Positions 25,458 through 42,740 of a stretch of 64,000 nucleotides of DNA are shown here, one piece after another. Origin of the DNA: Candidatus Levyibacteriota bacterium (lineage in GTDB: Bacteria > Patescibacteriota > Microgenomatia > Levybacterales > UBA12049); the NCBI GenBank assembly GCA_003173895.1, contig PJMG01000001.1:15576-79575 (forward strand). The letters are read 5' to 3'. Both the position numbers and the translations under genes were made by a program. The notes under the pieces are model-generated. The model worked only from the letters and a program-made list of their open reading frames with translations. It searched no databases and was not told the DNA's origin. The first letter of the stretch is position 1, and the number at the start of each line of letters is the position of its first letter.

Positions 25458-25539
25458 GGGTCGGTGGCGGAATTGGTATACGCGTATGGTTTAGGACCAT
25501 ATCCCGCAAGGGTTGGGGGTTCAAGTCCCTTCCGACCCA
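25458..25539 (+). tRNA. tRNA-Leu (anticodon TAG)
   Basis: Acceptor GGGTCGG/CCGACCC, anticodon stem TATGG/CCATA with loop TTTAGGA, long variable arm CCCGCAAGGG. Confidence 0.75.
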
Positions 25540-25551
25540 CTAATTAAACTT

Positions 25552-26460: not shown

Positions 26461-26472
26461 TAGTATATTCTT

Positions 26473-27261: not shown

Positions 27262-27407
27262 TTTCACAATTTTATTGACTTATTTACTATTATAATGCTA
27301 AACTAATAAACATTATGAATTGGCAGTGCCTTCACTATACAACTATTAATCTCTCAGCTAGAGGGATGCATTTGTGTGGGAGGATACAAGTCTAAAAAGA
27401 AATTAAA

Positions 27408-27440
27408 TAAAAAATTCAACCTCCCAAAATGGGAGGTTTT
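27408..27440 (+). terminator. Intrinsic terminator/attenuator hairpin AACCUCCC-AAAA-UGGGAGGUU + U-run
   Basis: Perfect inverted repeat followed by a T-run, immediately before the ATG at 27450. Confidence 0.5.
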
Positions 27441-27449
27441 TTAATATTT

Positions 27450-28262
27450 ATGATAAGCGAAAACGAACAACTTAAACAAATCCAAGAAGCTAAAGCTAAT
27501 TTAAAAATAAGCTATGATAATTATTGGCGACGAAGACGTGAGGTAGGCAATCCTCACATGAGCCAAGAAATATACACATTAAGAGAAAAATTGGCACAAG
27601 CAGAGGAAGGATATAGACAAACGCTAGGTATAGATGGAATAATTGTTCCCTCACATTTTAATTCTTTTTCAAACGAAAGAAATAAAATTAGAGATTTACA
27701 AGATCGTTTTGGAATGGAAATCACTACTGTGGGAAGAATTGGTACATTGGCTTTAAATGGAGAAGATCCAATTAGAGCTGCTGAAATATTAGAAGAGCGT
27801 GGTATACACTATGCAATATTAGTATCTGGTCCTGGTGGATCATATATTATAGAAGGAAGTAAAGGACAAAAACATAGTAATATAAGAGAAGCTTTGTGGG
27901 GAGTAGAACCAGAAATTGGTTTAAGACGTCCTGATGTGTCAGGTTTCATTTTTAATATCGATGGTAGAAAATTTTTTGTTACAGACGACCCTACGGGGGA
28001 TATGCTATGGCCTTCGTTACATTTTACCTTAGATAGTGGATATCAAATGGGCGCAGAAGTATTAAACGTTAACTCTAATCTTAATGGAGCAAGAAATATT
28101 TTTAATAAAACCAGACGTCAAATAGGAATAAAAAGATTAGATGATAAATCTGCAGTCATTTTATTAGGTGAAAGTTTAAAGCCTCTAATATTAAACACAT
28201 TTAATATGCAAGCAAAAATTAATCAAATAGAAGCGCGTATTAAAGGCCATCAATTTAATTAG
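27450..28262 (+). CDS. Hypothetical protein
   Basis: ORF with start reassigned to ATG 27450, downstream of the hairpin. Confidence 0.45.
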   Translation: MISENEQLKQIQEAKANLKISYDNYWRRRREVGNPHMSQEIYTLREKLAQAEEGYRQTLGIDGIIVPSHFNSFSNERNKIRDLQDRFGMEITTVGRIGTLALNGEDPIRAAEILEERGIHYAILVSGPGGSYIIEGSKGQKHSNIREALWGVEPEIGLRRPDVSGFIFNIDGRKFFVTDDPTGDMLWPSLHFTLDSGYQMGAEVLNVNSNLNGARNIFNKTRRQIGIKRLDDKSAVILLGESLKPLILNTFNMQAKINQIEARIKGHQFN

Positions 28263-29566
28263 TTCCCGAAGAAGTTTTCGTCGAATTCCATTTGTTTTTC
28301 AATATTTTTTAGAGCGAAGTTTTCATTCATCCCATGCATCATGCCATCTTCGTTAGCAAAAGGAACTAATACCTGAGGTTTATTTAAGGTTTGATCAAAG
28401 AAAACTATGACAGGCTCTGTTCCACCTACATATCTATGCAAAACTTCTTGGTTAAATATTTCTGAAAGTATTTTTTTAGCTTTTAAAACATATTTATTAT
28501 CTACATTAATTCTGACTGGATAAGTAGCTGCTTCTGATTCAAACTCATACTCAATATAGTCTGGAATATTTTCTTTAATAAATTTTTTAAGTTGTGAAAG
28601 AATTTTTTCAGGCACTTGGTTATTTACCAACCTTATATTAAATTTAACTGTAGTTTTAGATGGAATACTGTTTCGATATCCCACTCCTGTATAACCTGAA
28701 TTAAAACCTGTAATTTCTATACTAGGTTTTTGTCCTGTTTGCTGATATAAGTCTAAACCTTCTTCTGTTAAAACAGTCTTAGTTCCAGTATTTTTTTTAT
28801 AAGTTTCTAAGTCAAATGGAATCATTACTGATTTATCTAAAGGTAAAACATCTTCATAAAATCCTTCTATCATTACTTTTCTTTCATCATCAAAAATTTT
28901 ATTAATAAATGTTATAGCTTCTTTTACAGAACTGGGCGCCGCCCCTCCATAAAGTCCGGAATGTAAATCATTATTAGAAGAGAAAAAGGTGAGAGTACAA
29001 TTTATGACTCCACGCGTTCCTAACTCTATCGTAGGTTGTCCTGCTGACATTTCACCATCTGAAATCATGATAAAATCGCATTTTAAAAGATTTTTATGCT
29101 CTTTTATAAAACCTTCAATAAATTCTGATCCTGTTTCTTCATTTCCTTCTGAAATAAATTTAATATTATATTTTAATTTTTTCTCTTTTATTAAGTTAAC
29201 AATGGTAATCATATGAACAAAAAGTTGTCCTTTATCATCCATAATCCCACGACCAAATAATTTCCCCTCTTTTTCTACTACTTCAAATGGTTCAGTGTCC
29301 CAACCATCCTCTTTAGATGCAGGTTGTACGTCATAATGGCCATAGATAAGACAAGTTTCAGCATTAGGGTTAACCACATATTCAGCAAAGAAAACAGGAT
29401 TTCCTTCAGCTTCAAAAGTCTGCGTTTTAAAACCTACTGATTCTAAATATTTAGAAAAAAATTCAACCGTTTTTGTAGCTTCTCCTTTTAAGGAAGTATC
29501 AGCAGAAACAGTTTTAAAAGAAATTAATTCCTTTACTAATTTTTTATATTCATCAAGCATTTGCAT
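28259..29566 (-). CDS. M20-family metallopeptidase (dipeptidase-like)
   Basis: GHYDVQP and FGRGIMDDKGQ motifs. Confidence 0.7.
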   Translation of the reverse strand: MQMLDEYKKLVKELISFKTVSADTSLKGEATKTVEFFSKYLESVGFKTQTFEAEGNPVFFAEYVVNPNAETCLIYGHYDVQPASKEDGWDTEPFEVVEKEGKLFGRGIMDDKGQLFVHMITIVNLIKEKKLKYNIKFISEGNEETGSEFIEGFIKEHKNLLKCDFIMISDGEMSAGQPTIELGTRGVINCTLTFFSSNNDLHSGLYGGAAPSSVKEAITFINKIFDDERKVMIEGFYEDVLPLDKSVMIPFDLETYKKNTGTKTVLTEEGLDLYQQTGQKPSIEITGFNSGYTGVGYRNSIPSKTTVKFNIRLVNNQVPEKILSQLKKFIKENIPDYIEYEFESEAATYPVRINVDNKYVLKAKKILSEIFNQEVLHRYVGGTEPVIVFFDQTLNKPQVLVPFANEDGMMHGMNENFALKNIEKQMEFDENFFGN

Positions 29567-29590
29567 ATCTAGTTTAGTATAACGTATTTA

Positions 29591-30241
29591 TTATTTTATA
29601 GTAATAATATTTGGATCAGTACCTAATATCCACATTATAAAATATGGATATTGAGATAGGGTAGGATCAGTCTTAAAAGATGTAAGTCCCATTATTTCTA
29701 ATTCTTGGTGTATTTCAAATTCTTGAAGTTGGCCAAGCGCTTCCGCTGTTTGTTTATCATTTAATTCCTCATCACCAATTTCATCATAAATATAAGGATT
29801 ATACGAGCTTAGTACAGCACGTACTTCAGAATCCTCAGGGAATTTTGTTTCTAAGAGCAATTCCACTAATTTAAACGCACCAAAAAGTTTCAATCCTTTA
29901 ATAGCAGTTGCTAAAATATCTCTAGGATTAATTATCTTATCTTCAGAAGAAACTTCAGCATTAATTTCTCCATTATTTTTTGATACATATATATAAGAAT
30001 AGTTATTAGGTTGAGAAGAATTATTTGTACTTATTAATACTTTTTTAGATGAAACTTCATCCAACTGGTTCGCTGGAATTACGGATAAATATAAATGTTG
30101 GATAGTTCCATTTTCTAAATTTTGGTTAATGGTAATTATTCCTGTATCTTTCCTTAATACAGATATATCTCTATTAGATTCAACTAAATTTTTTAAATTT
30201 GTAATTGCTGTTTCTATATTCAAGCTTTCTGGATTTGACAT
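29591..30241 (-). CDS. Hypothetical protein
   Basis: ORF only. Confidence 0.4.
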   Translation of the reverse strand: MSNPESLNIETAITNLKNLVESNRDISVLRKDTGIITINQNLENGTIQHLYLSVIPANQLDEVSSKKVLISTNNSSQPNNYSYIYVSKNNGEINAEVSSEDKIINPRDILATAIKGLKLFGAFKLVELLLETKFPEDSEVRAVLSSYNPYIYDEIGDEELNDKQTAEALGQLQEFEIHQELEIMGLTSFKTDPTLSQYPYFIMWILGTDPNIITIK

Positions 30242-30319
30242 AAGCGTATTATATTAAATGTAATTCCACTTGTAAATTTAGTAGTTGACAGATAAACAAG
30301 CTGTTTGATAACATAATAT

Positions 30320-30429
30320 TCATAAATATGAAATCTACACAAATGTATATTGTCCTTTTTATTAACCGCTAAGGCGGAGGGACTTTTTCGTATAGAAAAG
30401 TTTTCAACCGCCAAATAGGCGGTTTTTTT
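30320..30429 (+). promoter_or_regulatory. Leader-peptide transcription attenuator, copy A (three hairpins ending in an intrinsic terminator)
   Basis: Hairpin 1 GUCC..CCGC-UAAG-GCGG..GGAC, hairpin 2 CUUUUU/GAAAAG, terminator AACCGCC-AAAU-AGGCGGUU + U7 at 30407-30429. An alternative GGCGG:CCGCC antiterminator is possible. Nearly identical to copy B. Confidence 0.55.
30328..30372 (+). CDS. Putative leader peptide MKSTQMYIVLFINR (14 aa)
   Basis: ATG 30328 to TAA 30370-30372. The stop codon sits in the loop of hairpin 1. The C-terminus is conserved with the copy B peptide. Confidence 0.4.
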   Translation: MKSTQMYIVLFINR

Positions 30430-30435
30430 GTGGAT

Positions 30436-31605
30436 ATGAAAGATAATTTACTTAAATTAAATTTAAAAAAAGATTATTCAGAACGTAAAAATATTGGTAC
30501 ATTTACCTCTATTTTTAGATCTCCTATGTTACAAGAATATATAGACTATTATTTAAATAAAAATTTTGTAGATAAAAATGCTTACGAATCTTTACATTAT
30601 TTAAAAGAAGATGTTTTAAGTAATTTTTTCCATTCTTTATTTGAGATAAAAGAAGGGAAAATTCTTACTACCTCTGGATCAACTGAATCTATATTATTAG
30701 CCTTATTTTATGCTAGAGAAAAAGCAAAAGTAGAAAAAGGTATTAATAAACCAAATATTATTGTAGGAGAGAATACTCATTATAGTATTCAGAATTGTGC
30801 ACGCTTCTTAAAAATACATGTAAAATATGCAGGATTAAATGATAAGTATGAAATAAATATTAAAGATGTAGAAAAAAGAATAGATAAAAATACTATTTTA
30901 TTAGTGGGTACGTTGGGTACTACGGAATTAGGAGTCGTTGATAATATTTTATTATTAGATAAATTAGCTATCGAATATAATATTCCTTTACATATTGATG
31001 CGGCTATAGGAGGCTTTATTCTCCCATTTTTAGAAAAGAATAATGATTATTCATTCTCTAGTTTAAAAAGTTTATTTTCTATGAATATATCCGGACATAA
31101 ATTTGGACTAGCCCTACCGGGTAGTGGGATACTCTTATTAAGAGAAAAACATTTAATCGATAATCATGGTGGTGAAATAGAATACTTAAGTTCAGGTAAA
31201 AGTATAGTAGAAAATCTTTTAATTTCATCTAACTCTCTTGGAGTTTTAAGTCTAGGTATAAATATATTAAGTTTAGGAAAAGAAGGATATAAAAATTTAG
31301 CTGAGAATTATTTAAAAACAAAAAAAGTATTACAGAGAGAATTAGACAATTTAAAGGTAGATTATTTTTCAGGATCTAACTACATGCCACAGTTATTTTT
31401 ACACCCAGAAAATGTTAAGGAGATATCAAAAAAACTTGCGGAAAATGGATGGATTCAACACACCTATAAGCCAAAAGGATTACAAAAAGAAGGAATTCGT
31501 ATTGTAATAAAGAATAATCAAGAAATGCTTTTAGAAAAAGACTTATTAGATGACTTAAAATTTTGGAATAAAGAGATGAAAGGAGAAAATTATATTTATG
31601 AATAA
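30436..31605 (+). CDS. PLP-dependent group II decarboxylase (MfnA/GadB-like)
   Basis: PLP-Lys motif NISGHKFGLA. Fold-type I pattern TTSGSTESILLAL...HIDAAIGG. Start taken as ATG 30436; GTG 30430 is the alternative. Confidence 0.7.
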   Translation: MKDNLLKLNLKKDYSERKNIGTFTSIFRSPMLQEYIDYYLNKNFVDKNAYESLHYLKEDVLSNFFHSLFEIKEGKILTTSGSTESILLALFYAREKAKVEKGINKPNIIVGENTHYSIQNCARFLKIHVKYAGLNDKYEINIKDVEKRIDKNTILLVGTLGTTELGVVDNILLLDKLAIEYNIPLHIDAAIGGFILPFLEKNNDYSFSSLKSLFSMNISGHKFGLALPGSGILLLREKHLIDNHGGEIEYLSSGKSIVENLLISSNSLGVLSLGINILSLGKEGYKNLAENYLKTKKVLQRELDNLKVDYFSGSNYMPQLFLHPENVKEISKKLAENGWIQHTYKPKGLQKEGIRIVIKNNQEMLLEKDLLDDLKFWNKEMKGENYIYE

Positions 31606-32959
31606 AAATGAAATACAAAATCATATAGTATTTCAAAATACTCCAGATGTATTAGACCCTGCTCAGATGAGCGGAGCTACTGGTAGAACGGCAGAATTAA
31701 TTATGAATTTATTAGCCAGAGCAAATCATATGGCTCTTACTGGAGATACTGTAATTAATTCTTCAAATGTCCCTGATGATTTTATTCAATATTTATCAGC
31801 TGTTACTGGGGAATATCCAGATATAGTAAAAACTCAAATAGAACCTCCTTTATTTACAAAAGATTTATTAGATGCTTTACCTACTGGATCTTTTGAAGGA
31901 TATTTACTTGATCCCTATATTCAGTCAAAAACTATTGCTCTATATAGTCAAGAACAAAATATACCCATGGCATATACTCCTTCTGAAACTATTTTAAATG
32001 GAGTTACCGATTTAGCAAATAATAAAAAATATTTTAGAGAAACTGCAAATCAATTAGGTATACCATTAATCCCTGATCAAGCAACGTTCACTACAGAAGA
32101 CTTTTCTGGGTTGCGAAAAAAAATTATAGATATGATGAAAAAACATAAGAGTGTATTTATACAAGCTAACAGTTCTGGTGGTGGCATTGGTAATATTGAT
32201 ATTAGAGGAAATACTTGGCAATCAAAATTAGGATTAGGTAAAGAGAAAGTTTTAGAAGAATTGAAAAAATGGATGAAAGAAATGAAAGACGCTGGATCGG
32301 ATACAATTCTTCTAGCTCCATATGTTGAATTACTTTCTAGTCCTACTGTTAGTGGATTTATTCCTAAGGAAGGCGAACCGATAATTTATGGTATTTTTGA
32401 CCAAACTTTAGATCCTACTTCTCATGACTATCAAGGATTTGAATGGCCAGCCAATGATCAATATTCAAAGATTTATGGATCTACTATGATTAAGGGAGCA
32501 AAAAAATGGTTTAAGCATCTACAAAAGTTAGGGTATGTAGGTCCTTCCGACGTGGATTACATTATAGGATACAATGATGCATTAGGAGAAGTAATAGGAG
32601 CAAGTGAATCAAATACTAGATGGGACGCATTTAGATTCGCTCTTCAACATGCAGGAAGATTACAGAGATGGAATTTAAGGACACTTGAAGGAATTGATGT
32701 TTTAAATGCTCCTTATATTAAATCTAATGATCATATACATACAAACGCAGCTTCAACTACAGAAATAGTTCAAAGATTACGTAATGGTAGAATTCCTCTG
32801 TTAGGATTAGATCATCAACAAATGGGAATTATTGTTATGGTACCTCCACAACCTACTGATAGACGAGGAGACCAACAATTAGCGTTGGCTGTTATTGGAC
32901 CAGATAAAAAAACAACGAAAAAACTTTTTGAAGATGCACAAATTTTACTGCATAGTTAA
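31598..32959 (+). CDS. ATP-grasp-like enzyme (putative amino-acid/peptide ligase)
   Basis: Gly-rich loop FIQANSSGGGIGNIDIR. The C-terminal ESNTRWD resembles the ATP-grasp E-x-N-x-R motif. Moderate confidence. Confidence 0.45.
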   Translation: MNKNEIQNHIVFQNTPDVLDPAQMSGATGRTAELIMNLLARANHMALTGDTVINSSNVPDDFIQYLSAVTGEYPDIVKTQIEPPLFTKDLLDALPTGSFEGYLLDPYIQSKTIALYSQEQNIPMAYTPSETILNGVTDLANNKKYFRETANQLGIPLIPDQATFTTEDFSGLRKKIIDMMKKHKSVFIQANSSGGGIGNIDIRGNTWQSKLGLGKEKVLEELKKWMKEMKDAGSDTILLAPYVELLSSPTVSGFIPKEGEPIIYGIFDQTLDPTSHDYQGFEWPANDQYSKIYGSTMIKGAKKWFKHLQKLGYVGPSDVDYIIGYNDALGEVIGASESNTRWDAFRFALQHAGRLQRWNLRTLEGIDVLNAPYIKSNDHIHTNAASTTEIVQRLRNGRIPLLGLDHQQMGIIVMVPPQPTDRRGDQQLALAVIGPDKKTTKKLFEDAQILLHS

Positions 32960-32964
32960 ATAAA

Positions 32965-34059
32965 ATGATTAAAATAAATAGGCAAAGACTTATAGAAAAT
33001 TTTATAGCTCTTGTTAAAACAAACAGTACTTCAGGGAATGAAAAAGATATTAGTAATTTTTTAAAAAGTAATTTAGAAAATTTAGGTGGTAAAGTAACTT
33101 TTGACTCTTATGGGAATCTTTTATCTTTTTTTGAAGGTAAAGGAGAAACAATAATATTAAATTGCCATTTAGACACAGTTCACCCAGGTGAAAATATAAG
33201 AACCATTCAAAAAGGAGATAGACTCTTTTCAGATGGTAAAACCATATTAGGAGCAGACGCAAAAGCAGGATTAGCGATAATTTTAGAGATTCTTAATTTA
33301 AGAAAAGAAAAAAAAATAAATTGTCCTCCTTTACAAATTATCCTCACTAAAGAAGAAGAATCTGGTCTTATTGGCGCTAGGAATTTAGACTTTAGTTTAG
33401 TTAAAGGGAAATATGGTTTGGTGTTTGATGGAGATTTTGGACCTGACAATATTACAATTTATGCTCCAGGTTATTATTTTTTTGAATGTTCAGTTTTAGG
33501 TAAAGCAGCTCATGCTGGAATGGAACCAGAAAAAGGCGTATCTGCTATTTTAGGTGCGGCAAAATTAATAAATAAAATTCCCTTTGGACGAATAGATTCC
33601 GAAACTACTCAAAATATCGGTATTATACAGGGTGGAGACGGTACTAATATAATTTCTAATAAAGTAATTTTTAAAGGAGAAATTAGGGGTAGAAATAAAA
33701 CTAAATTATTAAAGCAAATAAAAAAATTAAAGTTTATTATAGAAAAATTTTTAAGTGAAAATAAAAATATCAAAGTAAAATTAAATGGACAAATTATATT
33801 CGATCCTTACGCTTTTAGTCTAAAAAACAAATTTTTAAAAAAAATTCAATTAGCATATGAACCAATAGGATTAAAACCTAAATTTTTACCTTCAGGTGGA
33901 GGTACAGATGCTAATATTTTTAATAATAAGGGTTTTAATCTATTTCCTATAGGTTTTGGTGCATATAATACTCATACAACTTCTGAGTATCTAATTCTAT
34001 CTGAAATGGAAAAAACACTAATTTTTTGTATTAATCTTTTAAAAATAAAAAGAAGATAA
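32965..34059 (+). CDS. M20-family peptidase, PepT (tripeptidase)-like
   Basis: CHLDTVHPG, GADAKAGLAI and TKEEESGLIGA motifs. Confidence 0.7.
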   Translation: MIKINRQRLIENFIALVKTNSTSGNEKDISNFLKSNLENLGGKVTFDSYGNLLSFFEGKGETIILNCHLDTVHPGENIRTIQKGDRLFSDGKTILGADAKAGLAIILEILNLRKEKKINCPPLQIILTKEEESGLIGARNLDFSLVKGKYGLVFDGDFGPDNITIYAPGYYFFECSVLGKAAHAGMEPEKGVSAILGAAKLINKIPFGRIDSETTQNIGIIQGGDGTNIISNKVIFKGEIRGRNKTKLLKQIKKLKFIIEKFLSENKNIKVKLNGQIIFDPYAFSLKNKFLKKIQLAYEPIGLKPKFLPSGGGTDANIFNNKGFNLFPIGFGAYNTHTTSEYLILSEMEKTLIFCINLLKIKRR

Positions 34060-34088
34060 ATTCTTTTATCAATATTATTGTCCAGTAT

Positions 34089-34227
34089 TTGACATCATAT
34101 TTTAAATACACTATAATCTCATTATGAGTTCGAAATACGCACAAGTTTTTGTCCTTATTATTAACCGCTAAGGCGGAGGACTTTTTATATAAAAAAGTTT
34201 CAACCGCCAAAAAAGGCGGTTTTTTTG
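34089..34227 (+). promoter_or_regulatory. Sigma70 promoter (TTGACA-17-TATAAT) plus leader-peptide attenuator, copy B
   Basis: Perfect -35 and -10 at 34089-34094 and 34112-34117. Same three-hairpin element as copy A. Terminator AACCGCC-AAAAA-AGGCGGUU + U7 ends at 34227. Confidence 0.55.
34124..34171 (+). CDS. Putative leader peptide MSSKYAQVFVLIINR (15 aa), leaderless
   Basis: The ATG lies 7 nt after the -10 box. The TAA falls in the loop of hairpin 1. The C-terminal VL(I/F)INR-stop is conserved with copy A. Confidence 0.4.
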   Translation: MSSKYAQVFVLIINR

Positions 34228-34239
34228 TAAAATGAACTT

Positions 34240-35331
34240 ATGTTAGATCAAATAAAATTATTAACCAATATTTTACTCTCTATTCATTCTGTAAAAACAG
34301 AATTTGAGAATTTAAATTTAGCCTTAGAAGTGGCTGAAACAGAACTCTCTGAATTTAAAATAGAAAAATTTACCAGTAATAATTTCCCCAGCCTTTTAGT
34401 CTATAATCAACACACTTTACCTGCCAAATTTAAGGTAATTTTAAATGCTCATTTGGATGTCACACCAGCTCCTGATGAATTTTTCCATGCAAAAGAGAAA
34501 AGTGGAAAACTTTATGGTCGTGGAGTATATGATATGAAAGCAGCCGCAGCTGTAATGATTTTAGTTTTTAAAGAAATGGCTAAGAAGGTTAATTATCCGC
34601 TAGGACTTCAATTAGTAACTGATGAAGAACTAGGTGGCCATAATGGAACTAAATATCAAATAGAAAAAGGCGTAAAAAGCGATTTCGTTTTATGTGGAGA
34701 TGCTTCTAATTTAGAAGTAGTTAATAAATCTAAAGGCTTTGCTTGGATGAAGATAAGTTGTAAAGGTGCTACTTCTCATGGAGCTTATCCATGGGAAGGA
34801 GATAATGCTTTGTGGAAAATAAATCATTTTCTAAATAAATTAAAGCAAGCATTTCCAATACCTGAAAAAGATTCATGGGTTACTACTATTAATTTAGCTA
34901 AAATAGAAACATCTAATAATACATTTAATGAAATACCATCTGATTCTACAGTTTGGTTGGATATAAGATATATTCCTGAAGAAAAAAATATCTTAAGGAA
35001 AAAGATTCTAGATCTTATACCTAAAGATTTTTCTTATAAATTCGTATTAAATGAATCTTATGCATATCTAGATCCTAAGAATGAGTATATTCAGAAACTT
35101 CAAAACGCAAGCGAGAAAGTGATAAAAAAACCTTTAACTATCTCTGCTCACAATGGTGGATCTGATGCTAGACTTTATACTAATAAAGATATGGATAGCT
35201 TAGAATTCGGGCCTAAAGGTGGGAGATTACCTGATGGTAACGAATGGATAGATTTTAAAAATCTGGAAGAGTATCATAAAATTTTAAAAGAATTTTTAAA
35301 ATCAATAAATAATTTTTCATTAAACAATTAA
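34240..35331 (+). CDS. M20-family peptidase (ArgE/DapE-like), tandem paralogue 1
   Basis: NAHLDV, YGRGVYDMKA and LVTDEELGG motifs. Confidence 0.7.
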   Translation: MLDQIKLLTNILLSIHSVKTEFENLNLALEVAETELSEFKIEKFTSNNFPSLLVYNQHTLPAKFKVILNAHLDVTPAPDEFFHAKEKSGKLYGRGVYDMKAAAAVMILVFKEMAKKVNYPLGLQLVTDEELGGHNGTKYQIEKGVKSDFVLCGDASNLEVVNKSKGFAWMKISCKGATSHGAYPWEGDNALWKINHFLNKLKQAFPIPEKDSWVTTINLAKIETSNNTFNEIPSDSTVWLDIRYIPEEKNILRKKILDLIPKDFSYKFVLNESYAYLDPKNEYIQKLQNASEKVIKKPLTISAHNGGSDARLYTNKDMDSLEFGPKGGRLPDGNEWIDFKNLEEYHKILKEFLKSINNFSLNN

Positions 35332-35337
35332 CTGACC

Positions 35338-36453
35338 ATGACTATGGACGAAGATATTTTAGAATTAACTAAAAATCTAATAAGTTTACATACTGTGTCT
35401 AAAAATTCAGGAGTAAATGCTGACGCTTTAGCTTTTATAGAACATTATTTAAAGGATTCACATTTATTTTTTAAAAAATACCATAAAAATGGAATCTATA
35501 ATTTAGTTATTTCTAATAAACCAGTAACAAATAATTTTGATCTTATTTTGCATGGACACATAGATGTAATCCCTGCTACAAATCCAGAAGATTTTATTCC
35601 TAGAGTAGGGAACGGAAAATTATTTGGTCGCGGATCCATGGATATGAAAGGAGGATTGGCAGCCTTAATAGTTTTGATGAGAGAAATAGGAAAAGGAAAT
35701 ATTCAGATAGATAAAAATATTGCACTTTTTATAACTGCAGATGAAGAGTTGGGTGGAGCTAATGGAACTAAATATTTAATTCAACAGTTAGGCTATAAAT
35801 CTAAATTTTTTTTAACAGGCGAGGGAGTAAAAGAAAATTTTCCTATTTATAATAAGAGTAAAGGAGTTCTCTCTTTAAAAGTAAAATCTAAGGGAAAAGG
35901 AAAACATGCATCTCTACCTTGGTTAGGAGAAAGCGCTATAGATAATTTAATAAATTTCTATCATGATATTAGAATTTTATTTCCTAAAAAAGATAATAAA
36001 AATAATTGGTATTCTACCTGTTTATTAAGTACTATATATGGTGGAGAAGCTATTAATTCTGTATCAGAATATGCAGAAGGTAGTATAGACATACGCTTTA
36101 CAGAAGAATTCAAATCAGCAGATCAAGTTTTAGAAAAAATTTATAGTATTCAAAAAAATCATCCTGGAATTAGCTTGGAAGTAGTAGTAAAAAATGAAAT
36201 GTTAAATACTTCTAGAGATAATAACTATATTAAAATATTAGCAAATGCTGTTAAAAAAAATATCAATCCATGGAATAATTATTTTTTAAGTGCTCATGGA
36301 GTTTCAGATGCTAGATTTGCTGCTGAAAATGGAATACCTGGTGTAGAATTTGGTCCTTCTGGCAATAATAGTCATAGTACTAGTGAATATGTAAAAATTG
36401 ATAGTTTATCTGTGTTCTATGATATCTTAAAAGATTTTATTAAAAATATTTAA
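35338..36453 (+). CDS. M20-family peptidase (ArgE/DapE-like), tandem paralogue 2
   Basis: HGHIDVIP, FGRGSMDMKG and ITADEELGG motifs. Confidence 0.7.
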   Translation: MTMDEDILELTKNLISLHTVSKNSGVNADALAFIEHYLKDSHLFFKKYHKNGIYNLVISNKPVTNNFDLILHGHIDVIPATNPEDFIPRVGNGKLFGRGSMDMKGGLAALIVLMREIGKGNIQIDKNIALFITADEELGGANGTKYLIQQLGYKSKFFLTGEGVKENFPIYNKSKGVLSLKVKSKGKGKHASLPWLGESAIDNLINFYHDIRILFPKKDNKNNWYSTCLLSTIYGGEAINSVSEYAEGSIDIRFTEEFKSADQVLEKIYSIQKNHPGISLEVVVKNEMLNTSRDNNYIKILANAVKKNINPWNNYFLSAHGVSDARFAAENGIPGVEFGPSGNNSHSTSEYVKIDSLSVFYDILKDFIKNI

Positions 36454-36460
36454 ATTATTT

Positions 36461-37531
36461 ATGATTGACCAAATTAAATCTCTAAGCAGTTTACTTATTT
36501 CTATTCCTTCTGTAAAAGGAGATAGAAAAAGTTTAGACTTAGTTTTAACAGTAGCTAAACAAGAACTTTCAGACTTTAAAGTAAAAGAATTTGAAAGTAA
36601 TAATATTCCTAGTTTACTAGTTTATAATACTGAAACTTTACCTGAAAAATTTAAAGTTTTAATTAGTGCTCATTTAGATGTCGTTCCTGCTAAAAAAGAT
36701 CAATTTAATGCGGTTGAGAAAAATGGCCGGCTTTATGGTCGTGGAGCATATGATATGAAAGCTGGTGCAGCTGCCAGTATATTAGTATTTAAAGAAGTAG
36801 CTAAAAAAGTGAATTATCCCTTTGGCCTTCAATTAGTAACTGATGAGGAAATTGGTGGATATGATGGTGCTTTATATCAAGTGAAACAGGGAGTTAAAAC
36901 TGATTTTGTTATAGCCGGTGATTCATCTAACTTCTCGATGGTAACAGAAGCTAAAACACTCTTCTGGATAAAAGTTAGTGCACCGGGTAAAACAGAACAT
37001 GCAGGTTATCCCTGGTTGGGAGACAATGCAATTGATAAGATGGTAGATTTTGCTAAAAGAGTAAAAGAAGAATTTCCCACTTTAAAAGAAGATAAATGGA
37101 CCAATACAGTAACACTCTCTAAAATAGAAACTAATAATATAGCAATTAATAAAATACCTGCTGACTGTAGTACTACGTTTGATATTCGTTGTATTCCTGA
37201 AGATAGAGAAAAAGTTTTTAATAAATTTATCAGTTTAATTCCTAAAAATTTTAAATATGAAGTTTTATTAGATGAACCCGCAGAATTAACTCCTAAAGAT
37301 AGTCCATATTTACAGAAATTAGTCTCTACAGTTGAAAAAGTGACTGGAAAAAGACCAGAAATGATTACTAAACACGGTCTATCTGATGTACGTTTTTTTA
37401 TGGAACAAGGAGCACATGGTACCCAATTTGGTCCCAAGGGAGCAGGACATCATAGTGATGATGAGTGGGTAGACCTTAAAAATTTAAATGACTACTATCA
37501 TATATTAAAAAACTTCCTCCTTTCACTTTAA
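36461..37531 (+). CDS. M20-family peptidase (ArgE/DapE-like), tandem paralogue 3
   Basis: SAHLDVVP, YGRGAYDMKA and LVTDEEIGG motifs. Very similar to 34240..35331. Confidence 0.7.
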   Translation: MIDQIKSLSSLLISIPSVKGDRKSLDLVLTVAKQELSDFKVKEFESNNIPSLLVYNTETLPEKFKVLISAHLDVVPAKKDQFNAVEKNGRLYGRGAYDMKAGAAASILVFKEVAKKVNYPFGLQLVTDEEIGGYDGALYQVKQGVKTDFVIAGDSSNFSMVTEAKTLFWIKVSAPGKTEHAGYPWLGDNAIDKMVDFAKRVKEEFPTLKEDKWTNTVTLSKIETNNIAINKIPADCSTTFDIRCIPEDREKVFNKFISLIPKNFKYEVLLDEPAELTPKDSPYLQKLVSTVEKVTGKRPEMITKHGLSDVRFFMEQGAHGTQFGPKGAGHHSDDEWVDLKNLNDYYHILKNFLLSL

Positions 37532-37564
37532 CTTAAAAATATCCTTTGGTATAATCAAACAACG

Positions 37565-37637
37565 GACGGTTAGCTCAGTTGGTTAGAGCGTTACATTGAC
37601 ATTGTAAAGGTCACTGGTTCGAGTCCAGTACCGTCCA
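37565..37637 (+). tRNA. tRNA-Val (anticodon GAC)
   Basis: Acceptor GGACGGT/ACCGTCC, D-arm GCTCAGTTGGTTAGAGC, anticodon stem TTACA/TGTAA with loop TTGACAT, T-arm ACTGGTTCGAGTCCAGT. Confidence 0.8.
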
Positions 37638-37662
37638 CTAAATAATTTGCTACAATACTATT

Positions 37663-38214
37663 ATGACGCGAGATCAAGCTTGGGAAATCTTAAATAAACA
37701 TCTTAAAAACGATAAGCTTATTAAACACTGCTTAGCTGCTGAAGCTACTATGCGAGGTTTAGCAAGATATTTTGGTGAAGATCAAGAAGTTTGGGGAATA
37801 ACAGGACTTCTGCACGATGCAGATTATGAAAAGTCAAAAGGTCACCCAGAAAAACATGGACTTTTACTTTTTGAGTTAGAAAAAGATATCCCTGATGATA
37901 TAAAACATGCTATTCAGTCACATAATTACGATGATACTAATGTCATGCCAGAAACTAAAATGGATTGGGCTATCACTTGCTGTGATCAATTAACTGGACT
38001 TATAGTAGCCTGTGCACTAGTAACACCAAACAGAAAACTTTCCGAATTAACTAACGACTTTATTATAAAGAAATTAAAAGAAGTAAAATTTGCAGCAGGA
38101 GCAGATAGATCTAAAATTTATATGTGTGAGGAAAAATTAGGAATTCCTCTTATAGAATTCGTAACCATAGCATTAACTTCTATGCAGGAAATCAGCGATC
38201 AATTAGGCCTCTAG
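37663..38214 (+). CDS. HD-domain (HDIG-type) phosphohydrolase
   Basis: HCLAAEATMRGLA ... GLLHDADY motifs. Confidence 0.6.
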   Translation: MTRDQAWEILNKHLKNDKLIKHCLAAEATMRGLARYFGEDQEVWGITGLLHDADYEKSKGHPEKHGLLLFELEKDIPDDIKHAIQSHNYDDTNVMPETKMDWAITCCDQLTGLIVACALVTPNRKLSELTNDFIIKKLKEVKFAAGADRSKIYMCEEKLGIPLIEFVTIALTSMQEISDQLGL

Positions 38215-38240
38215 TTTTCTTATCTTATTCTTAAAATTAT

Positions 38241-38537
38241 TTGTTATTTAAAAAACCTATGAGTAAAAGACAATTTATAAAAACTAAATATATTAAAGAA
38301 GTACCCACGAATCAAGAAGTTAATAAATCGGCTGATAAATATTTAGCTGTAGACCGTTCTAAAAAAGCTTTATTTATAAATAATTTTATTGGTGGAATTG
38401 CATGGGGAATAGGAGCTAGTATTGGTGCGTCAATAATAATCACTATACTCGGATTTATTTTAGGACAATTGGGTTTTATTCCATTTCTTCATCCATATAC
38501 TTCACAAGTATTAAAATTTTTCCCACATAAACAGTAA
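38241..38537 (+). CDS. Small membrane protein, hypothetical
   Basis: C-terminal glycine-rich TM segments GGIAWGIGASIGASIIITILGFILGQLGF. Confidence 0.4.
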   Translation: MLFKKPMSKRQFIKTKYIKEVPTNQEVNKSADKYLAVDRSKKALFINNFIGGIAWGIGASIGASIIITILGFILGQLGFIPFLHPYTSQVLKFFPHKQ

Positions 38538-38545
38538 AATACTGC

Positions 38546-38684
38546 TTGCGTCGATAAATTATTCATGTTAATATATTTTTATGATTAAAAATATCGCAAT
38601 GAATTGTCCAACTACAAAGTCAACTTCTGATTAGGAGGTTTTCTTTTTGTGGAAAAGTATAACCTCCGAAAGGAGGTTTTTTTT
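38546..38684 (+). promoter_or_regulatory. Promoter (TTGCGT-17-TGtTAATAT) plus leaderless leader-peptide attenuator, copy C
   Basis: Antiterminator GGAGGUU (38634-38640) pairs with AACCUCC. The competing terminator AACCUCC-GAAA-GGAGGUU + U8 lies at 38661-38684. The leader-peptide stop codon overlaps the antiterminator 5' arm. Confidence 0.5.
38581..38634 (+). CDS. Putative leader peptide MIKNIAMNCPTTKSTSD (17 aa), leaderless
   Basis: ATG is 7 nt after the -10 box. The last seven sense codons include three Thr and two Ser. TAG lies at 38632-38634. Confidence 0.35.
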   Translation: MIKNIAMNCPTTKSTSD

Positions 38685-38692
38685 GTGCCTTT

Positions 38693-39880
38693 ATGGAATT
38701 AAAAATACAACCATCATTACAACCATTACATGAATTAGCAGAAAGCTCTTTTTCTTATGGTAGAGCACAGGCTAAAATACAACCTTTAGAGCAAGCTAAT
38801 AGAAATTCTCGTGTAATAGCTAGAAAATTAGGAGAGATCGTAGAGGGATTACAATTATCTATCGACATTCCTGAAACAAGAAGAATAATTAGTCATGATA
38901 ATGGCAATGCCTTTGCTGAAGTAATTTTAAACGGAAAAAAACATTTTATTATGGCTAGAACACCATTAGATGGAAGAAACTTTAGTGAATCTCTACAAGA
39001 ACAGAAGCCTGAAGTAACTATCGTAAGTGGTCCATGTTTATTTAGTGCCGATGCAGTACAAGCTATTTCTCATGAAGGAGAAAACTTTGCCCTTACTAGG
39101 CGCGGAGAAATAATTAATCAAACTATTTCTCATATAAATGTTGATAATAATTTATCCTTGTATGAAGCAGAAGCTATTTCTAGATTAAGTACTTTAATTC
39201 ATGATTTAGTACAAAATAACCAACATATTAAACACGTCGCGCTTAATATTCCAGAAGCAGAATATTATCTTTTTGGTCTGGAAGCATTTGAACAAGGACA
39301 TCTCTCTTCTCATCAATTAAGAGAATGGTTTAATAATGTGGATTATAGACATGATAGGCAAATTAAATTAATTAAAAATAGAATTCAAAGAGGTACAAAT
39401 GTAGAAATTTATGAATCTTCACCTCTTTTACCTGTTAAAAACTATATACGTATTAAAGTATTAAATAATGAATTACCAACCTTTTCTGAAGCTGTTGAAT
39501 TATTATCAGAAAATAATGAATTATGGAGAGATCTCTTTGCTGTAAGTAAAATTAACAATTGGCAAGATATTATTGATTTATCTTATGTATATGCTGAACT
39601 TGAAGCAGGAGAACAACACGGTGGAAAACCTACATTCGCTCTAGTTATAGAAAATCCAACTGAAAATAAAATATTTGCTAATGCTAAAAAGGTAGCTATA
39701 GAACTTCAGAAAATACGCTCAAGAATTTTTAATGTTGTGGCCATTTATCCTCATGAATTAATTCTTCCTGTAGGAGATAATGCTAATAGAACTATGTATC
39801 ATATAACAGAAACTACTGATGATAAATTTTCATTATTTAGACAAATTGTTAATATATATAGGAGAGGAGGATCTGTATGA
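38693..39880 (+). CDS. Hypothetical protein
   Basis: ORF, first gene downstream of attenuator C. Overlaps the next gene by 4 nt. Confidence 0.45.
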   Translation: MELKIQPSLQPLHELAESSFSYGRAQAKIQPLEQANRNSRVIARKLGEIVEGLQLSIDIPETRRIISHDNGNAFAEVILNGKKHFIMARTPLDGRNFSESLQEQKPEVTIVSGPCLFSADAVQAISHEGENFALTRRGEIINQTISHINVDNNLSLYEAEAISRLSTLIHDLVQNNQHIKHVALNIPEAEYYLFGLEAFEQGHLSSHQLREWFNNVDYRHDRQIKLIKNRIQRGTNVEIYESSPLLPVKNYIRIKVLNNELPTFSEAVELLSENNELWRDLFAVSKINNWQDIIDLSYVYAELEAGEQHGGKPTFALVIENPTENKIFANAKKVAIELQKIRSRIFNVVAIYPHELILPVGDNANRTMYHITETTDDKFSLFRQIVNIYRRGGSV

Positions 39881-40938
39881 AAAAGAATTTAAATTATCAA
39901 AATGCAATATCCATGATTCGGGGCTCTTCTATATATTCTACAGGAGGTGGATTTGCTTACAGTGGGCAAAAAAGAATGTTTAATAATCTTTTTAAAAAAG
40001 TAAATTCCATTAAATTAATTTCTATAGATGAATTAAAAGATAATGATTATATTTGTACTGCATATGCCGTAGGCTCTGCTGGAAATACAGACATTGACTT
40101 ATCACCAGCATTAAGACAAGGCCTTCAAGTCTTACAAAATTTTACTGGTATTAAACCCAAAGCTATTTTTGCTGGAGAAACGAATATTGATATTATTGCT
40201 TCTCAATCGGCAGTAGCTTTAAATTTACCTATATTAGACGCAGATAGTAATGGCGGTAGGGCTGTACCAGAAATACAAATGGATAATTTTGTAATTTATG
40301 ATAAACCCATTACTCCTGTGGTAGTTGTAACTTTAGACGGAGATGTTGCTATTTTGCAACAAACTAAAAATCCATATAATATAGAAAATTTTGTGAGATC
40401 TATCGCAGGTAATTCAAAAATTGGTATGGTAGCAGTATTAGATCATTTAATTCAAGTTAAACTAGCAAAGAAAATATTAACACATGGTATTTTTAGTAGA
40501 TCACTTAAATTGGGTCAATTAATTCAAGAGAATTATAATAATCAAGATTTGTTAGAAAAAATAATTAGAGAAATTAACGGGCAGTTATTAATTAAAGGAA
40601 AAGTTTTTAAATCTACTTTAAAAAGTAATTTAAAAGAAGGTTTTCTAAATGGGGATTATTTTATAAAAGATAGAAAAGGAAATGTGGTAAAAGTTTATGC
40701 TAAAAATGAGAATATAATTTGTTGGAAAAATAATAGAGTATTTGCTACAAGCCCTGATAGAATTTTGACTATTGATACTAAAACATTTTTAGGTATTCAT
40801 AACAGTCAATTAAAAGAAGATGAAGAAGTAGCTGTTATAGTAGCTAAAGCAAGTGAAATGTGGAGAAGTAAGAAAGCTCTAGAATTATTTGAACCTAGAC
40901 ATTTTGGTTTTTTATTTAAACCTAAATTATTAAAGTAA
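39877..40938 (+). CDS. Hypothetical protein (Gly-rich N-terminal GSSIYSTGGGFAYSG motif)
   Basis: ORF, translationally coupled to the upstream gene. Followed 38 nt later by thrS. Confidence 0.45.
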   Translation: MKKNLNYQNAISMIRGSSIYSTGGGFAYSGQKRMFNNLFKKVNSIKLISIDELKDNDYICTAYAVGSAGNTDIDLSPALRQGLQVLQNFTGIKPKAIFAGETNIDIIASQSAVALNLPILDADSNGGRAVPEIQMDNFVIYDKPITPVVVVTLDGDVAILQQTKNPYNIENFVRSIAGNSKIGMVAVLDHLIQVKLAKKILTHGIFSRSLKLGQLIQENYNNQDLLEKIIREINGQLLIKGKVFKSTLKSNLKEGFLNGDYFIKDRKGNVVKVYAKNENIICWKNNRVFATSPDRILTIDTKTFLGIHNSQLKEDEEVAVIVAKASEMWRSKKALELFEPRHFGFLFKPKLLK

Positions 40939-40976
40939 TTGTTTTAAAAACTAGTAGCGTTTGCTATCATATTGCT

Positions 40977-42740
40977 ATGAATGAGAACAAAGAAAAATTA
41001 GAACATCTTAGACATTCTGCAGCGCATTTACTTGCAGCGGCCATTATTGAATTATGGCCTGGCTCTAAACAAACTATTGGTCCTGCTATAGAAAATGGAT
41101 TTTATGAGGATATGGATTTAGGTGATGTAAAAATTTCAGAAGCAGACTTACCAAAGATTGAAGAAAAAATGAGAGAAATAGTTAAAGGGTGGAAAAAATT
41201 TGAAAGAATGGAAGTTTCTAAAGAAGAAGCCATTAAAGCGTTCCCTAATAATGAATATAAACATGAATTAATAAATGAATTTGCAGACCAAGGAAAAACA
41301 TTAACTATTTATAAATCTGGTGATTATATAGATCTTTGTCGTGGAGGACATGATATGGATCCATCTGAAGATTTAAAACATTTTAAGCTCTTAAAAATAG
41401 CAGGAGCATATTGGCGAGGAAATGAAAAAAATAAAATGTTAACTCGTATTTATGGAGCTGCATTTTTTACTCAAGAAGAATTAGATAATTATTTAAAAAT
41501 GCTGGAAGAAGCAGAAAAAAGAGATCACAAAAAGATCGGTCGAGAGCTGGATCTATTTATATTTGTAGATAGTGCTGCAGGGATGCCATATTGGTTACCA
41601 AAAGGATTGATAATCTACAACGAACTACTCAACTTCTCACGAGAAGTTCATAAAAAATTTGGGTATCAAGAAGTTATGACTCCTATTATAAATAAAAAAG
41701 AATTATTTGAAACTTCAGGACATTGGTTTCATTATCGAGATGATATGTTTATTTCACCGATGAGTTATCTGAGAAGCGATTCTAAAGATCCCTACGAAGG
41801 AACTGAAGTTTTTGGTATAAAACCTATGAATTGTCCCAATGCTATGAATATTTTTGATTCTAAAACTCGAAGTTATAGAGACTTACCTATGAGGCTTTCT
41901 GAAACTACAGCGCTTCATAGATTTGAATTATCTGGAACTTTAAACGGCTTATTTAGAGCCAGAGAATTTCATCAAGATGACTCTCATACTTTCTTAGCTG
42001 TTTCACAAGTAGAAGAAGAATTTAAAAAAATTATGGAAATGATCGAGATTTTTTATTCTAGTTTCAATCTTTCTTACAAACTCAGATTTGGTACTAGACC
42101 AGAGAATTTTATGGGTGAAGCTTCTGACTGGGATATTGCAGAAAAAAGCCTTGAAGGAGTTTTAAAAGAATCAGGTAAAGAATATTTTAAAGTAGAAGGA
42201 GAAGGAGCATTTTATGGTCCAAAAGTAGATATTTTAATGAAAGATTCGCTAGGGCGTGAATGGCAGACAGGAACGATTCAACTAGATTTTCAGCAACCAA
42301 AGAATTTTAAATTAAAATATACTGATTCAAACGGTAAAGAAACACAACCAGTAGTTTTACATAAAGCCATTTATGGCTCATTAGAACGTTTTTTAGGCAT
42401 ACTAATTGAGAATTATATTGGTAAACTCCCACTTTGGCTTTCGCCAGTTCAAGTAGTAATTTTACCAATTGCTGATAGACATATAGATTTTGCTAAAAAA
42501 CTTACCAATGAACTATCCACTGCTAATATTCGTACGGAAATTGATATAACTAGCGAGCGTTTGCAAGCTAAAATACGAAATTTTACTTTACAAAAAGTGC
42601 CCTTTATGGGTATAATAGGAGATCAGGAAGTCGAAAATTCATCTGTTGCTATAAGATCCCGAGAGGGTGAAGATTTAGGAAAGATGAAATTAAACGACTT
42701 AATTAATTTCTTAAAAGACAAAATTGATAAAAAGATTTAA
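40977..42740 (+). CDS. thrS: Threonine--tRNA ligase (lacking N-terminal TGS domain)
   Basis: HSAAHLLAAA (HxxxH editing/N2 motif) sits at the very N-terminus. Class II core and anticodon-binding domain follow. Shorter than canonical ThrRS. Confidence 0.85.
   Translation: MNENKEKLEHLRHSAAHLLAAAIIELWPGSKQTIGPAIENGFYEDMDLGDVKISEADLPKIEEKMREIVKGWKKFERMEVSKEEAIKAFPNNEYKHELINEFADQGKTLTIYKSGDYIDLCRGGHDMDPSEDLKHFKLLKIAGAYWRGNEKNKMLTRIYGAAFFTQEELDNYLKMLEEAEKRDHKKIGRELDLFIFVDSAAGMPYWLPKGLIIYNELLNFSREVHKKFGYQEVMTPIINKKELFETSGHWFHYRDDMFISPMSYLRSDSKDPYEGTEVFGIKPMNCPNAMNIFDSKTRSYRDLPMRLSETTALHRFELSGTLNGLFRAREFHQDDSHTFLAVSQVEEEFKKIMEMIEIFYSSFNLSYKLRFGTRPENFMGEASDWDIAEKSLEGVLKESGKEYFKVEGEGAFYGPKVDILMKDSLGREWQTGTIQLDFQQPKNFKLKYTDSNGKETQPVVLHKAIYGSLERFLGILIENYIGKLPLWLSPVQVVILPIADRHIDFAKKLTNELSTANIRTEIDITSERLQAKIRNFTLQKVPFMGIIGDQEVENSSVAIRSREGEDLGKMKLNDLINFLKDKIDKKI

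Follow-up and report, generated by a model that had tools for sequence, protein, structure and literature searches.

The 64-kb window analysed here, a stretch of contig PJMG01000001.1 from a Candidatus Levyibacteriota bacterium, has a G+C content of 30%, and the nearest named homologues of its proteins, at about 50% identity, belong to the Microgenomates group of the Candidate Phyla Radiation (CPR; Roizman-, Woese- and Daviesbacteria). It carries, just upstream of a tandem triplet of M20 genes, a compact element that we name copy B, its near twin, copy A, lying further upstream. An earlier reading of the letters of the sequence, referred to below as the original prediction, had placed this element in control of the triplet and, indeed, three genes 6–7 nucleotides (nt) apart follow its terminator. 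The element and the operon are made of the following parts.

34089–34094, + strand: –35 box TTGACA of the copy-B promoter, TTGACA-17-TATAAT.
34112–34117, + strand: –10 box TATAAT of the same promoter, 6 nt upstream of the leader ATG at 34124.
34124–34171, + strand: leader open reading frame (ORF), 15 codons followed by TAA (34169–34171), MSSKYAQVFVLIINR.
34151–34168, + strand: segment 1, which lies within the ORF and provides the 5′ side of hairpin 1; outer GUCCU 34151–34155 and inner CCGC 34165–34168 (from folding and pair counts).
34169–34171, + strand: leader stop TAA, in the UAAG loop of hairpin 1 (from folding).
34172–34181, + strand: segment 2, GGCGGAGGAC, pairing with segment 1 or, through its GGCGG, with the CCGCC of segment 3 (antiterminator).
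34179–34199, + strand: A/U-rich middle hairpin, GACUUUUU-AUAUA-AAAAAGUUU, found in both conformers (from folding).
34202–34208, + strand: segment 3, AACCGCC, shared by the terminator (as 5′ arm) and the antiterminator (as 3′ arm).
34215–34226, + strand: segment 4, GGCGG and T7, 3′ arm and U-tract of the intrinsic terminator (–11.2 kcal/mol).
34240–35331, 35338–36453 and 36461–37531, + strand: three genes for M20 deacylases/peptidases of the ArgE/DapE family.

The original prediction had described the promoter, the ATG at 34124 and the 15-codon ORF ending inside the loop of hairpin 1, and all these coordinates hold. In its perfect form the promoter is found once in the window, for 0.05 occurrences expected by chance, and it is the sole site scoring 12/12 between 29.5 and 39.5 kb. 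Consensus boxes, a gap of 6 nt and absence of a Shine-Dalgarno motif make up a leaderless geometry, with a transcript predicted to start at or adjoining the A of the ATG. Among ordinary genes of the window the distance between the –10 box and the ATG shows a sharp peak at 6–7 nt (13 genes, for about one at each other offset), while a Shine-Dalgarno-like motif precedes 9 of the 49 long ORFs. The gap of copy B being thus the modal one, its leader ORF should be translated as normal genes are. Leaderless messengers appear to be the main mode of this genome, a situation of which no report was found for CPR bacteria in the literature searched. Examples are the following.

+ strand: apparently leaderless genes at 98, 6951, 11319, 37663, 40977, 43913 and 52185.
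– strand: apparently leaderless genes at 30241, 29566, 16831, 6889 and 56298.

Within the leader, the candidate regulatory codons are GTT TTT GTC CTT ATT ATT (Val Phe Val Leu Ile Ile, 34145–34162). They lie 11–26 nt upstream of segment 2, the last Ile codon beginning 11 nt 5′ of it. What follows the ORF can fold in two mutually exclusive ways. In hairpin 1 (–10.2 kcal/mol), CCGC (34165–34168) pairs with GCGG (34173–34176) to form the inner stem and GUCCU (34151–34155) with AGGAC (34177–34181) to form the outer one. The terminator, AACCGCC-A6-GGCGGTT-T7 at 34202–34226, ends 13 nt 5′ of the first M20 ATG at 34240. Neither a promoter nor a Shine-Dalgarno motif was found between the two, so that the operon depends on read-through. 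In the alternative fold, GGCGG (34172–34176) pairs with CCGCC (34204–34208), sequestering the 5′ arm of the terminator; the energy of this pairing of segments 2 and 3 is –9.6 kcal/mol, against –3.8 kcal/mol in shuffles (p < 0.005), and the region as a whole folds with z = –4.1 relative to shuffled sequences. Support for the pairing of segments 1 and 2, which comes from folding and pair counts, is weaker than that for segments 2 and 3. A nascent RNA in which segment 1 is masked and segment 4 still lacking adopts the antiterminator fold (–14.1 kcal/mol). Once the RNA is complete, the two conformers, antiterminator and terminator, are isoenergetic (–16.3 and –16.4 kcal/mol), which fits a switch decided by kinetics. 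A U5 stretch directly 3′ of hairpin 1 may act as a pause site for the polymerase until the ribosome arrives.

This arrangement is not confined to copy B. Scanning the window for terminators placed directly before genes gave two further elements, D and the weaker candidate C, besides A and B, and related Microgenomates contigs hold more than 40.

30285–30432, + strand: copy A, promoter TTGACA-18-TAACAT, leader MKSTQMYIVLFINR (30328–30372), same hairpins and terminator.
38546–38684, + strand: copy D, promoter TTGCGT-17-TAATAT, gap of 6 nt, ATG 38581, 17-codon leader MIKNIAMNCPTTKSTSD.
27275–27442, + strand: candidate copy C, 26-codon ORF MNWQCLHYTTINLSARGMHLCGRIQV (27315–27395), terminator 27418–27442; covariance-model score 23.1 bits, E = 0.038, outside the training set.

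Copies A and B, as the original prediction had it, are nearly identical in their core (89% identity, 73 of 82 columns) and diverged in the 5′ part of the ORF (61%); in the promoter region identity is 59%. The 14-mer AACCGCTAAGGCGG occurs exactly twice, for 0.09 expected, and the apex pair of the middle hairpin changes from C-G to U-A between the two copies. The conservation of the peptide C-terminus, I-N-R-stop, is real, yet the selection on the peptide that had been deduced from it does not follow from that alone, since these codons coincide with the nucleotides of stem 1. The statement that both copies have their –10 box 6–9 nt from the ATG applies to B. The best promoter of copy A, with an extended TG, ends 13 nt before its ATG, so that strict leaderlessness is well supported for B only; the CATAAT earlier taken as the –10 box of copy A would imply a spacer of 21 nt and was rejected. 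Across the family, the leaders with a recognisable promoter show gaps of 5–16 nt, pointing to transcripts that are leaderless or have very short untranslated leaders.

A catalogue of about 100 loci was reduced to 43 non-redundant terminators directly before genes. An ATG-initiated ORF of at least 12 codons ending at most 75 nt away accompanies 40 of them, to be compared with 12.2 ± 2.8 after dinucleotide shuffling (maximum 22 in 200 shuffles) and with 5 on the reverse complement; a further control, using terminators without a downstream gene, was discarded, being confounded by real gene ends. Complementarity of the antiterminator type reaches p ≤ 0.05 in 38 of 42 leaders, for a summed energy of –448 against –187 kcal/mol. 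In an unguided MAFFT alignment of 18 leaders, 80.3% of the terminator-state pairs and 80.7% of the antiterminator pairs are indeed paired, while partners slid along the alignment give at most 61%; several pairs have changed on both sides in a compensatory way. With the covariance model built from this alignment, the scores are 81 bits for B, 74 for A, 53 for D and 23 for C. Microgenomates-type loci give 44 hits, of which 42 share the strand of the gene; the M20 loci of proteobacteria and of high-G+C, likely actinobacterial, organisms give no hit.

The position and composition of the ORFs bear directly on the mechanism. The stop codon falls within the loop in 25 of 42 leaders, while in the remaining 17 it comes only after segment 2, a situation that attenuation allows. 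Runs of the same residue are in excess in the leaders (run statistic of 145, against 103.9 ± 4.0 in shuffles), and the last codon of the run starts at a median of 14 nt (interquartile range 11–15) 5′ of segment 2, irrespective of where the ORF ends, within the loop (25 leaders) or past segment 2 (17). This spacing is the reach between the A-site of a ribosome and its leading edge. It fits a ribosome which, stalled on the run, just fails to cover segment 2.

Taken together, these findings make it probable that transcription into the M20 operon is attenuated at copy B by a ribosome translating a leader peptide, as in attenuators of the trp/ilv/phe type, and on a leaderless transcript. RNA polymerase would initiate at the A of ATG 34124 or beside it, and a ribosome would start the leader once the 5′ AUG emerges. 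With ample charged Val, Phe, Leu and Ile tRNAs, this ribosome would reach the TAA and cover segment 2 (34172–34181); AACCGCC could then pair only with GGCGGUU, and the terminator would stop transcription at the U-tract (34220–34226), 13 nt before the M20 operon. Were one of these hydrophobic charged tRNAs scarce, the ribosome would stall 11–25 nt 5′ of segment 2, with hairpin 1 melted and segment 2 free. The free GGCGG would then pair with CCGCC as soon as it is made, enclosing the middle hairpin in an antiterminator, no terminator would form and the M20 genes would be transcribed. Without any ribosome, hairpin 1 would hold segment 2 and termination would be expected. The purpose would presumably be to make more of the amino acid-releasing enzymes under shortage of a hydrophobic amino acid, the organism being probably unable to synthesise such residues.

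As for the residues sensed, the closest M20 relatives offer a clue. Their contigs have the same layout before M20 genes, with leaders MNFLSKIGIQIITR in L004, MKSLLTCVVVTLA and MNKQFATMIVLINR in L003, and MKNLSIIRVIIIR, MIATFTFFFTFTL and MKHTVMQLLLLDR in L001. The three window genes are orthologous to the three L001 genes, each of which has its own leader there, with 59% identity for the gene under the Ile leader, 42% for that under the Phe/Thr leader and 72% for that under the Leu leader. The mixed V-F-V-L-I-I leader of copy B reads as if the separate Ile, Phe and Leu leaders of L001 had been combined, and from this orthology we infer a multivalent response of copy B, most likely to Ile and, along with it, to Leu, Val and Phe. 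Directly 3′ of the M20 operon lies a tRNA-Val(GAC) gene (37564–37638, + strand) with its own promoter-like site (37528–37555). It reads GUC and GUU, which are both Val codons of leader B, possibly a coincidence.

Several observations weigh against this interpretation of copy B. Its leader, like that of copy A, has no single-residue run, with at most two identical residues in any six, and does no better than shuffles (p = 0.96), so that its sensitivity to any single amino acid would be low and the residue sensed is a guess. Hairpin 1, with its –10.2 kcal/mol, is modest, and a simple duplex test of the pairing of segments 1 and 2 is significant in 5 of 42 leaders, hence uninformative. Copies A and B, sharing 89% of their core, are not independent witnesses. 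The first M20 gene lacks a Shine-Dalgarno motif, 116 nt into its messenger. Finally, the M20 proteins, although of the ArgE/DapE deacylase family, stay below every NCBIfam equivalog cutoff; that the enzyme supplies the sensed amino acid is here an assumption.

Might the RNA do without the ribosome? In that case, which we regard as quite improbable, the hairpins would be set by a ligand, by uncharged tRNA in the manner of a T-box, or by an RNA-binding protein, and the ORF would be incidental. The topology is of no help in deciding, as terminator/antiterminator alternatives are common to riboswitches, T-boxes and protein-dependent antiterminators, and the 9-nt asymmetric internal loop of hairpin 1 could in principle bind something. 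However, no Rfam family matches at threshold, and the weak matches are to leader-peptide families only. The family conserves its G+C-rich stems and nothing else, with neither loop nor bulge motif in common, which leaves no candidate pocket or protein site. Moreover, the excess of ORFs (40 of 43 against 12 by chance), the codon runs and the 14-nt spacing have no role in such a switch.

Another view, still less probable, is that control is chiefly exerted on translation: in a genome nearly devoid of Shine-Dalgarno sites, the ribosome on the leader would open the RNA or deliver ribosomes to the M20 start, termination being secondary; this may coexist with attenuation. The lack of a Shine-Dalgarno motif before the first M20 gene would then make sense, and in C, D and many relatives segment 4 contains GGAGG or GAGG at Shine-Dalgarno distance, so that the terminator would hide a ribosome-binding site. 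Leaderless poly-Cys small ORFs of mycobacteria are reported to act in this way (10.1101/834739). The predicted 5′ end of the copy-B transcript (34124–34131, AUGAGUUC) can furthermore pair with the bases around the start of the first M20 gene (34234–34241, GAACUUAU, which includes the A and U of the ATG); the duplex reaches –11.2 kcal/mol, and 0 of 300 shuffles is as good (p < 0.01). This pairing, seemingly kept in A and B, was rejected as a family feature, as its summed energy (–161.9 against –157.6 ± 11.6) does not stand out. The GGCGG that makes up segment 4 in A and B would be a poor Shine-Dalgarno sequence, and every element ends in a canonical G+C-rich stem followed by at least five T, a transcription signal. 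For C, D and the many relatives with a GGAGG segment 4, termination and translation may be controlled together.

No better placed is a sensor of the nascent peptide, in which the hydrophobic leader would arrest its own ribosome in answer to a small molecule, as do TnaC or the Erm leaders. TnaC works by arrest at termination. The stop codon of copy B lies exactly in the loop, and the C-terminus (I/F)VL(F/I)INR-stop is common to A, B and an element of another genome (L003a); this shared end coincides, however, with stem-1 nucleotides, and the stop is outside the loop in 17 of 42 leaders. The leaders are highly diverse, marked by residue runs and not by a shared arrest motif, while arrest at the stop would leave segment 2 under the ribosome and favour termination. 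These features make this mode of action very unlikely.

Least likely of all is that the ORF is a stand-alone gene for a hydrophobic 15-residue protein, akin to many small membrane peptides, or that the two copies, with cores 89% identical, are a repeated terminator or a recent segmental duplication devoid of regulatory role: the terminator ends 13 nt short of the M20 ATG and no promoter separates them, the duplicated unit spans only about 100 nt and precedes unrelated first genes (a decarboxylase for A, an M20 gene for B), a near-identical core recurs in L003a, where the M20 protein is only 65% identical, the elements occupy the upstream side of genes, in the same orientation as the gene, and never occur as 3′-end repeats, and the complementarity of segments 2 and 3 is far beyond chance. 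The original prediction had reserved the case of a repetitive extragenic palindrome (REP)-like element for further copies lacking an in-frame ORF or a stop in the loop. The further copies keep the ORF in 40 of 43 cases and the stop in the loop in 25 of 42, each is located between a promoter of its own and a gene, and 42 of the 44 hits of the covariance model are on the gene strand.

The proposal that leader-peptide attenuator copies form a regulon is likewise supported, with D and probably C in the window and the many elements of related genomes. The genes they precede deserve a closer look. Downstream of copy A are a pyridoxal phosphate (PLP)-dependent decarboxylase, a 453-residue protein and a PepT-like M20 protein. 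The 453-residue protein (31598–32959, + strand) has no Pfam or NCBIfam family above threshold; its N-terminal 170 residues match the ATP-grasp peptide ligase 8ynd (E = 7.7e-6). For the M20 proteins themselves, the closest solved structure is that of an uncharacterised M20. In copy D the leader stop TAG (38632–38634) is in the loop of hairpin 1, the terminator spans 38661–38684, and segment 2, GGAGGUU, is identical to segment 4; a 395-residue protein and then an S-Me-THD-like gene (PF06032/PF20906) follow. In candidate C, a GGGAGG within the ORF is complementary to the 5′ arm of the terminator, and the next gene encodes 270 residues. The leader of C, in which Trp, Tyr and Gln occur once and Cys and His twice, resembles the FWYHYH, YHYH and FWYH leaders found before proteins of 950–972 residues and a hydantoin racemase-like gene (L011, L016, L095, L061), and it may be a sensor of rare or aromatic residues. 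Neither the 270-residue nor the 395-residue protein received a function from Pfam or NCBIfam, and the latter has no sequence match in the PDB.

In the relatives, runs of Phe, Ile, Leu, Thr or Cys track the family of the downstream gene. This is most visible in a family of about 560 residues, where all five orthologues have Phe-rich leaders (FFFFFYFY, FGFFFF, FFRFYF, FNFFF and FSFF), and it extends to a second family, of about 600 residues.

L030:3310–4992, L018:3293–4981, L089:3913–5610, L017:3287–4966 and L088:2922–4595: 560-residue family, Phe-rich leaders.
L030:1375–3165, L089:1965–3788, L014:3247–4992, L040:2493–4307 and L055:446–2176: 600-residue family, Leu/Ile-rich leaders.

The members tested have no Pfam match, and the 560-residue family has no sequence match in the PDB. 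Judged by their leaders, both families are candidates for amino acid-specific functions. Thr runs are spelled with the synonymous codons ACA, ACT and ACC. Leaders of the same kind precede aminoacyl-tRNA synthetase genes in two contigs of Microgenomates type.

L096:15804–15905 (a named Woesebacteria assembly): Phe-rich leader MKEAFIFTNFFFRIN between rplT and pheS, its ATG overlapping the rplT stop.
L092:20399–20490: Phe-rich leader MIFKSTSFSFRIK between rplT and pheS.
L092:16959–17075: Thr6 leader MKSVFKTTTTTTSQIGEELLWI before thrS.

The thrS leader of L092 is followed by a structured spacer of 120 nt (CCCUCC...GGAGGG). In the window, pheS and thrS have only plain leaderless promoters. A link of the Thr-rich leaders of copy D and of L001 with thrS was considered and rejected for both, as thrS has its own leaderless promoter there; it holds in L092 only.

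These elements are found within a conserved frame (window 25513–43284; also L088, L092 and L096) that begins with trigger factor (tig) and DUF5660 and ends with DUF5665, thrS, infC, (rpmI), rplT and pheS. In between is a variable island with the attenuator-controlled genes: M20 proteins, aminotransferases, racemase-like proteins and proteins of 450–950 residues without annotation. In more distant Microgenomates most M20 homologues have no attenuator directly upstream, because the gene follows another one in an operon, and a search of contigs with one protein as query gave distant M20 genes of proteobacteria and no others; these lack the element. In L012, L021 and L036 a G+C-rich hairpin with a T-run lies just upstream of the M20 gene and has TATAAT in its loop; this would be the terminator of the upstream gene, with the –10 box of the next gene lodged in the loop.

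Two variations on the theme may be mentioned. Tandem attenuators, two leader-plus-terminator units before a single gene, are present at L001:10051–10257 and L014:2987–3241. In the L001 pair both leaders are Thr-rich and the second ATG comes directly after the first U-tract, where the GGGAGG arm of the first terminator could serve as Shine-Dalgarno sequence for the second leader. Besides, an M-x-x-K-V-L N-terminus is common to the leaders at L030:1200–1326, L063:1707–1831, L019:3767–3923, L026:23–148 and L022:158–275. The corresponding RNA, GGUUUUAUC (GGUUUUAUUUACC in L026), is complementary to the stretch between segments 2 and 3 (GAUAAAACC; GGUAAAUAAAACC), which suggests that this sub-family forms an extra long-range helix around hairpin 1.

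At the scale of the group, a tentative picture, to which we give slightly less than even weight, is that of a Microgenomates 'ribulon': amino acid-specific, mostly leaderless attenuators in the tig-DUF5660/DUF5665-thrS-infC-rplT-pheS island, extending up to thrS and pheS, whose leader codons (Phe, Ile, Leu, Thr, Cys, Trp/Tyr/His) would report the amino acid supplied by the product. In the window, three M20 genes otherwise controlled separately would have been merged under the multivalent copy B. If this is true, it provides the first functional predictions for the paralogous M20 deacylases and for the 450–950-residue families, and outlines a dedicated system of amino acid salvage. The leaders would then be built-in labels of amino acid specificity for protein families without annotation. 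Almost nothing is known of gene regulation in CPR/Patescibacteria, and the main interest of these elements is the regulon-scale picture that they may give in such poorly understood bacteria. The lineage is described as unable to make amino acids (10.64898/2026.07.13.738296); ultra-small bacteria described as auxotrophs would, if the picture holds, monitor the charging of individual tRNAs and induce hydrolases and enzymes without annotation, not biosynthesis. With its consensus sigma-70-type promoter and its simple RNA, the switch can be tested in Escherichia coli extracts or reporters, without culturing the organism.

How does copy B compare with known regulators? For attenuation of the trp, phe and ilv type the mechanism is that summarised in PMC1183508. 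The nearest likeness is to the phe leaders of E. coli, pheM-pheST and pheA (Phe_leader, RF01859), which as copy B have a hydrophobic or Phe-rich ORF overlapping segment 1, 1:2, 2:3 and 3:4 hairpins, and a terminator just before the gene. Phe_leader is also the best, if weak, Rfam match of A, B and the L096 element, although its gathering threshold of 55 bits is not reached (23.8 bits for copy B, 32.1 for copy A). At gathering thresholds Rfam finds only tRNAs in the window, and at permissive ones only leader families below threshold are added. In E. coli, pheM lies between rplT and pheS. The Phe-rich leaders of L096 and L092 occupy this same map position. Copy B differs from the E. coli leaders in that it controls M20 deacylases and not a synthetase or a biosynthetic operon, is predicted to be leaderless, and has mixed V/F/L/I codons in place of a run of Phe.

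This mixture recalls the ilvGMEDA/ilvBN-type attenuators of Proteobacteria and the ilvBNC attenuator of Corynebacterium (PMC11857589), with their mixed Ile, Leu and Val codons, three hairpins and terminator/antiterminator alternatives. Copies A and B would most likely respond to any of several hydrophobic amino acids. The ilv-type leaders, by contrast, have many more regulatory codons and biosynthetic targets, whereas copy B has six hydrophobic codons in 15 and acts on probable amino acid-releasing hydrolases.

Leaderless sensory ORFs have a precedent in the poly-Cys 'ribulon' of mycobacteria, reported to act on translation, where a ribosome-binding site is unmasked (10.1101/834739). For Corynebacterium, reports place small leader peptides upstream of trpE, leuA, ilvB and aroF (PMC3890552). 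The present elements would share with them a sensory ORF at the 5′ end of the messenger, devoid of a Shine-Dalgarno sequence, and the tying together of many operons by pausing on runs; a relative, L061, even has a CCC leader (MIKTVSYCCCGSRV) like the mycobacterial poly-Cys. They differ in that all have canonical intrinsic terminators and in that several amino acids are concerned, for different operons of a single gene island.

T-box riboswitches serve the same purpose, sensing tRNA charging and controlling genes related to amino acids through the choice between terminator and antiterminator. In Firmicutes it is usually a T-box that controls aminoacyl-tRNA synthetase genes. Unlike T-boxes, the present element is about 105 nt long (for 200 or more), contains an ORF, and has neither specifier loop nor T-box sequence; the T-box model has no match in 30000–34500, even at E ≤ 10.

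Full-text literature searches found no paper on leader-peptide attenuation or leaderless messengers in CPR/Patescibacteria. The mechanism proposed here is a known one. It differs from its precedents in its lineage, in its predicted leaderless start and in its targets, which are hydrolases and proteins without annotation in place of biosynthetic operons.

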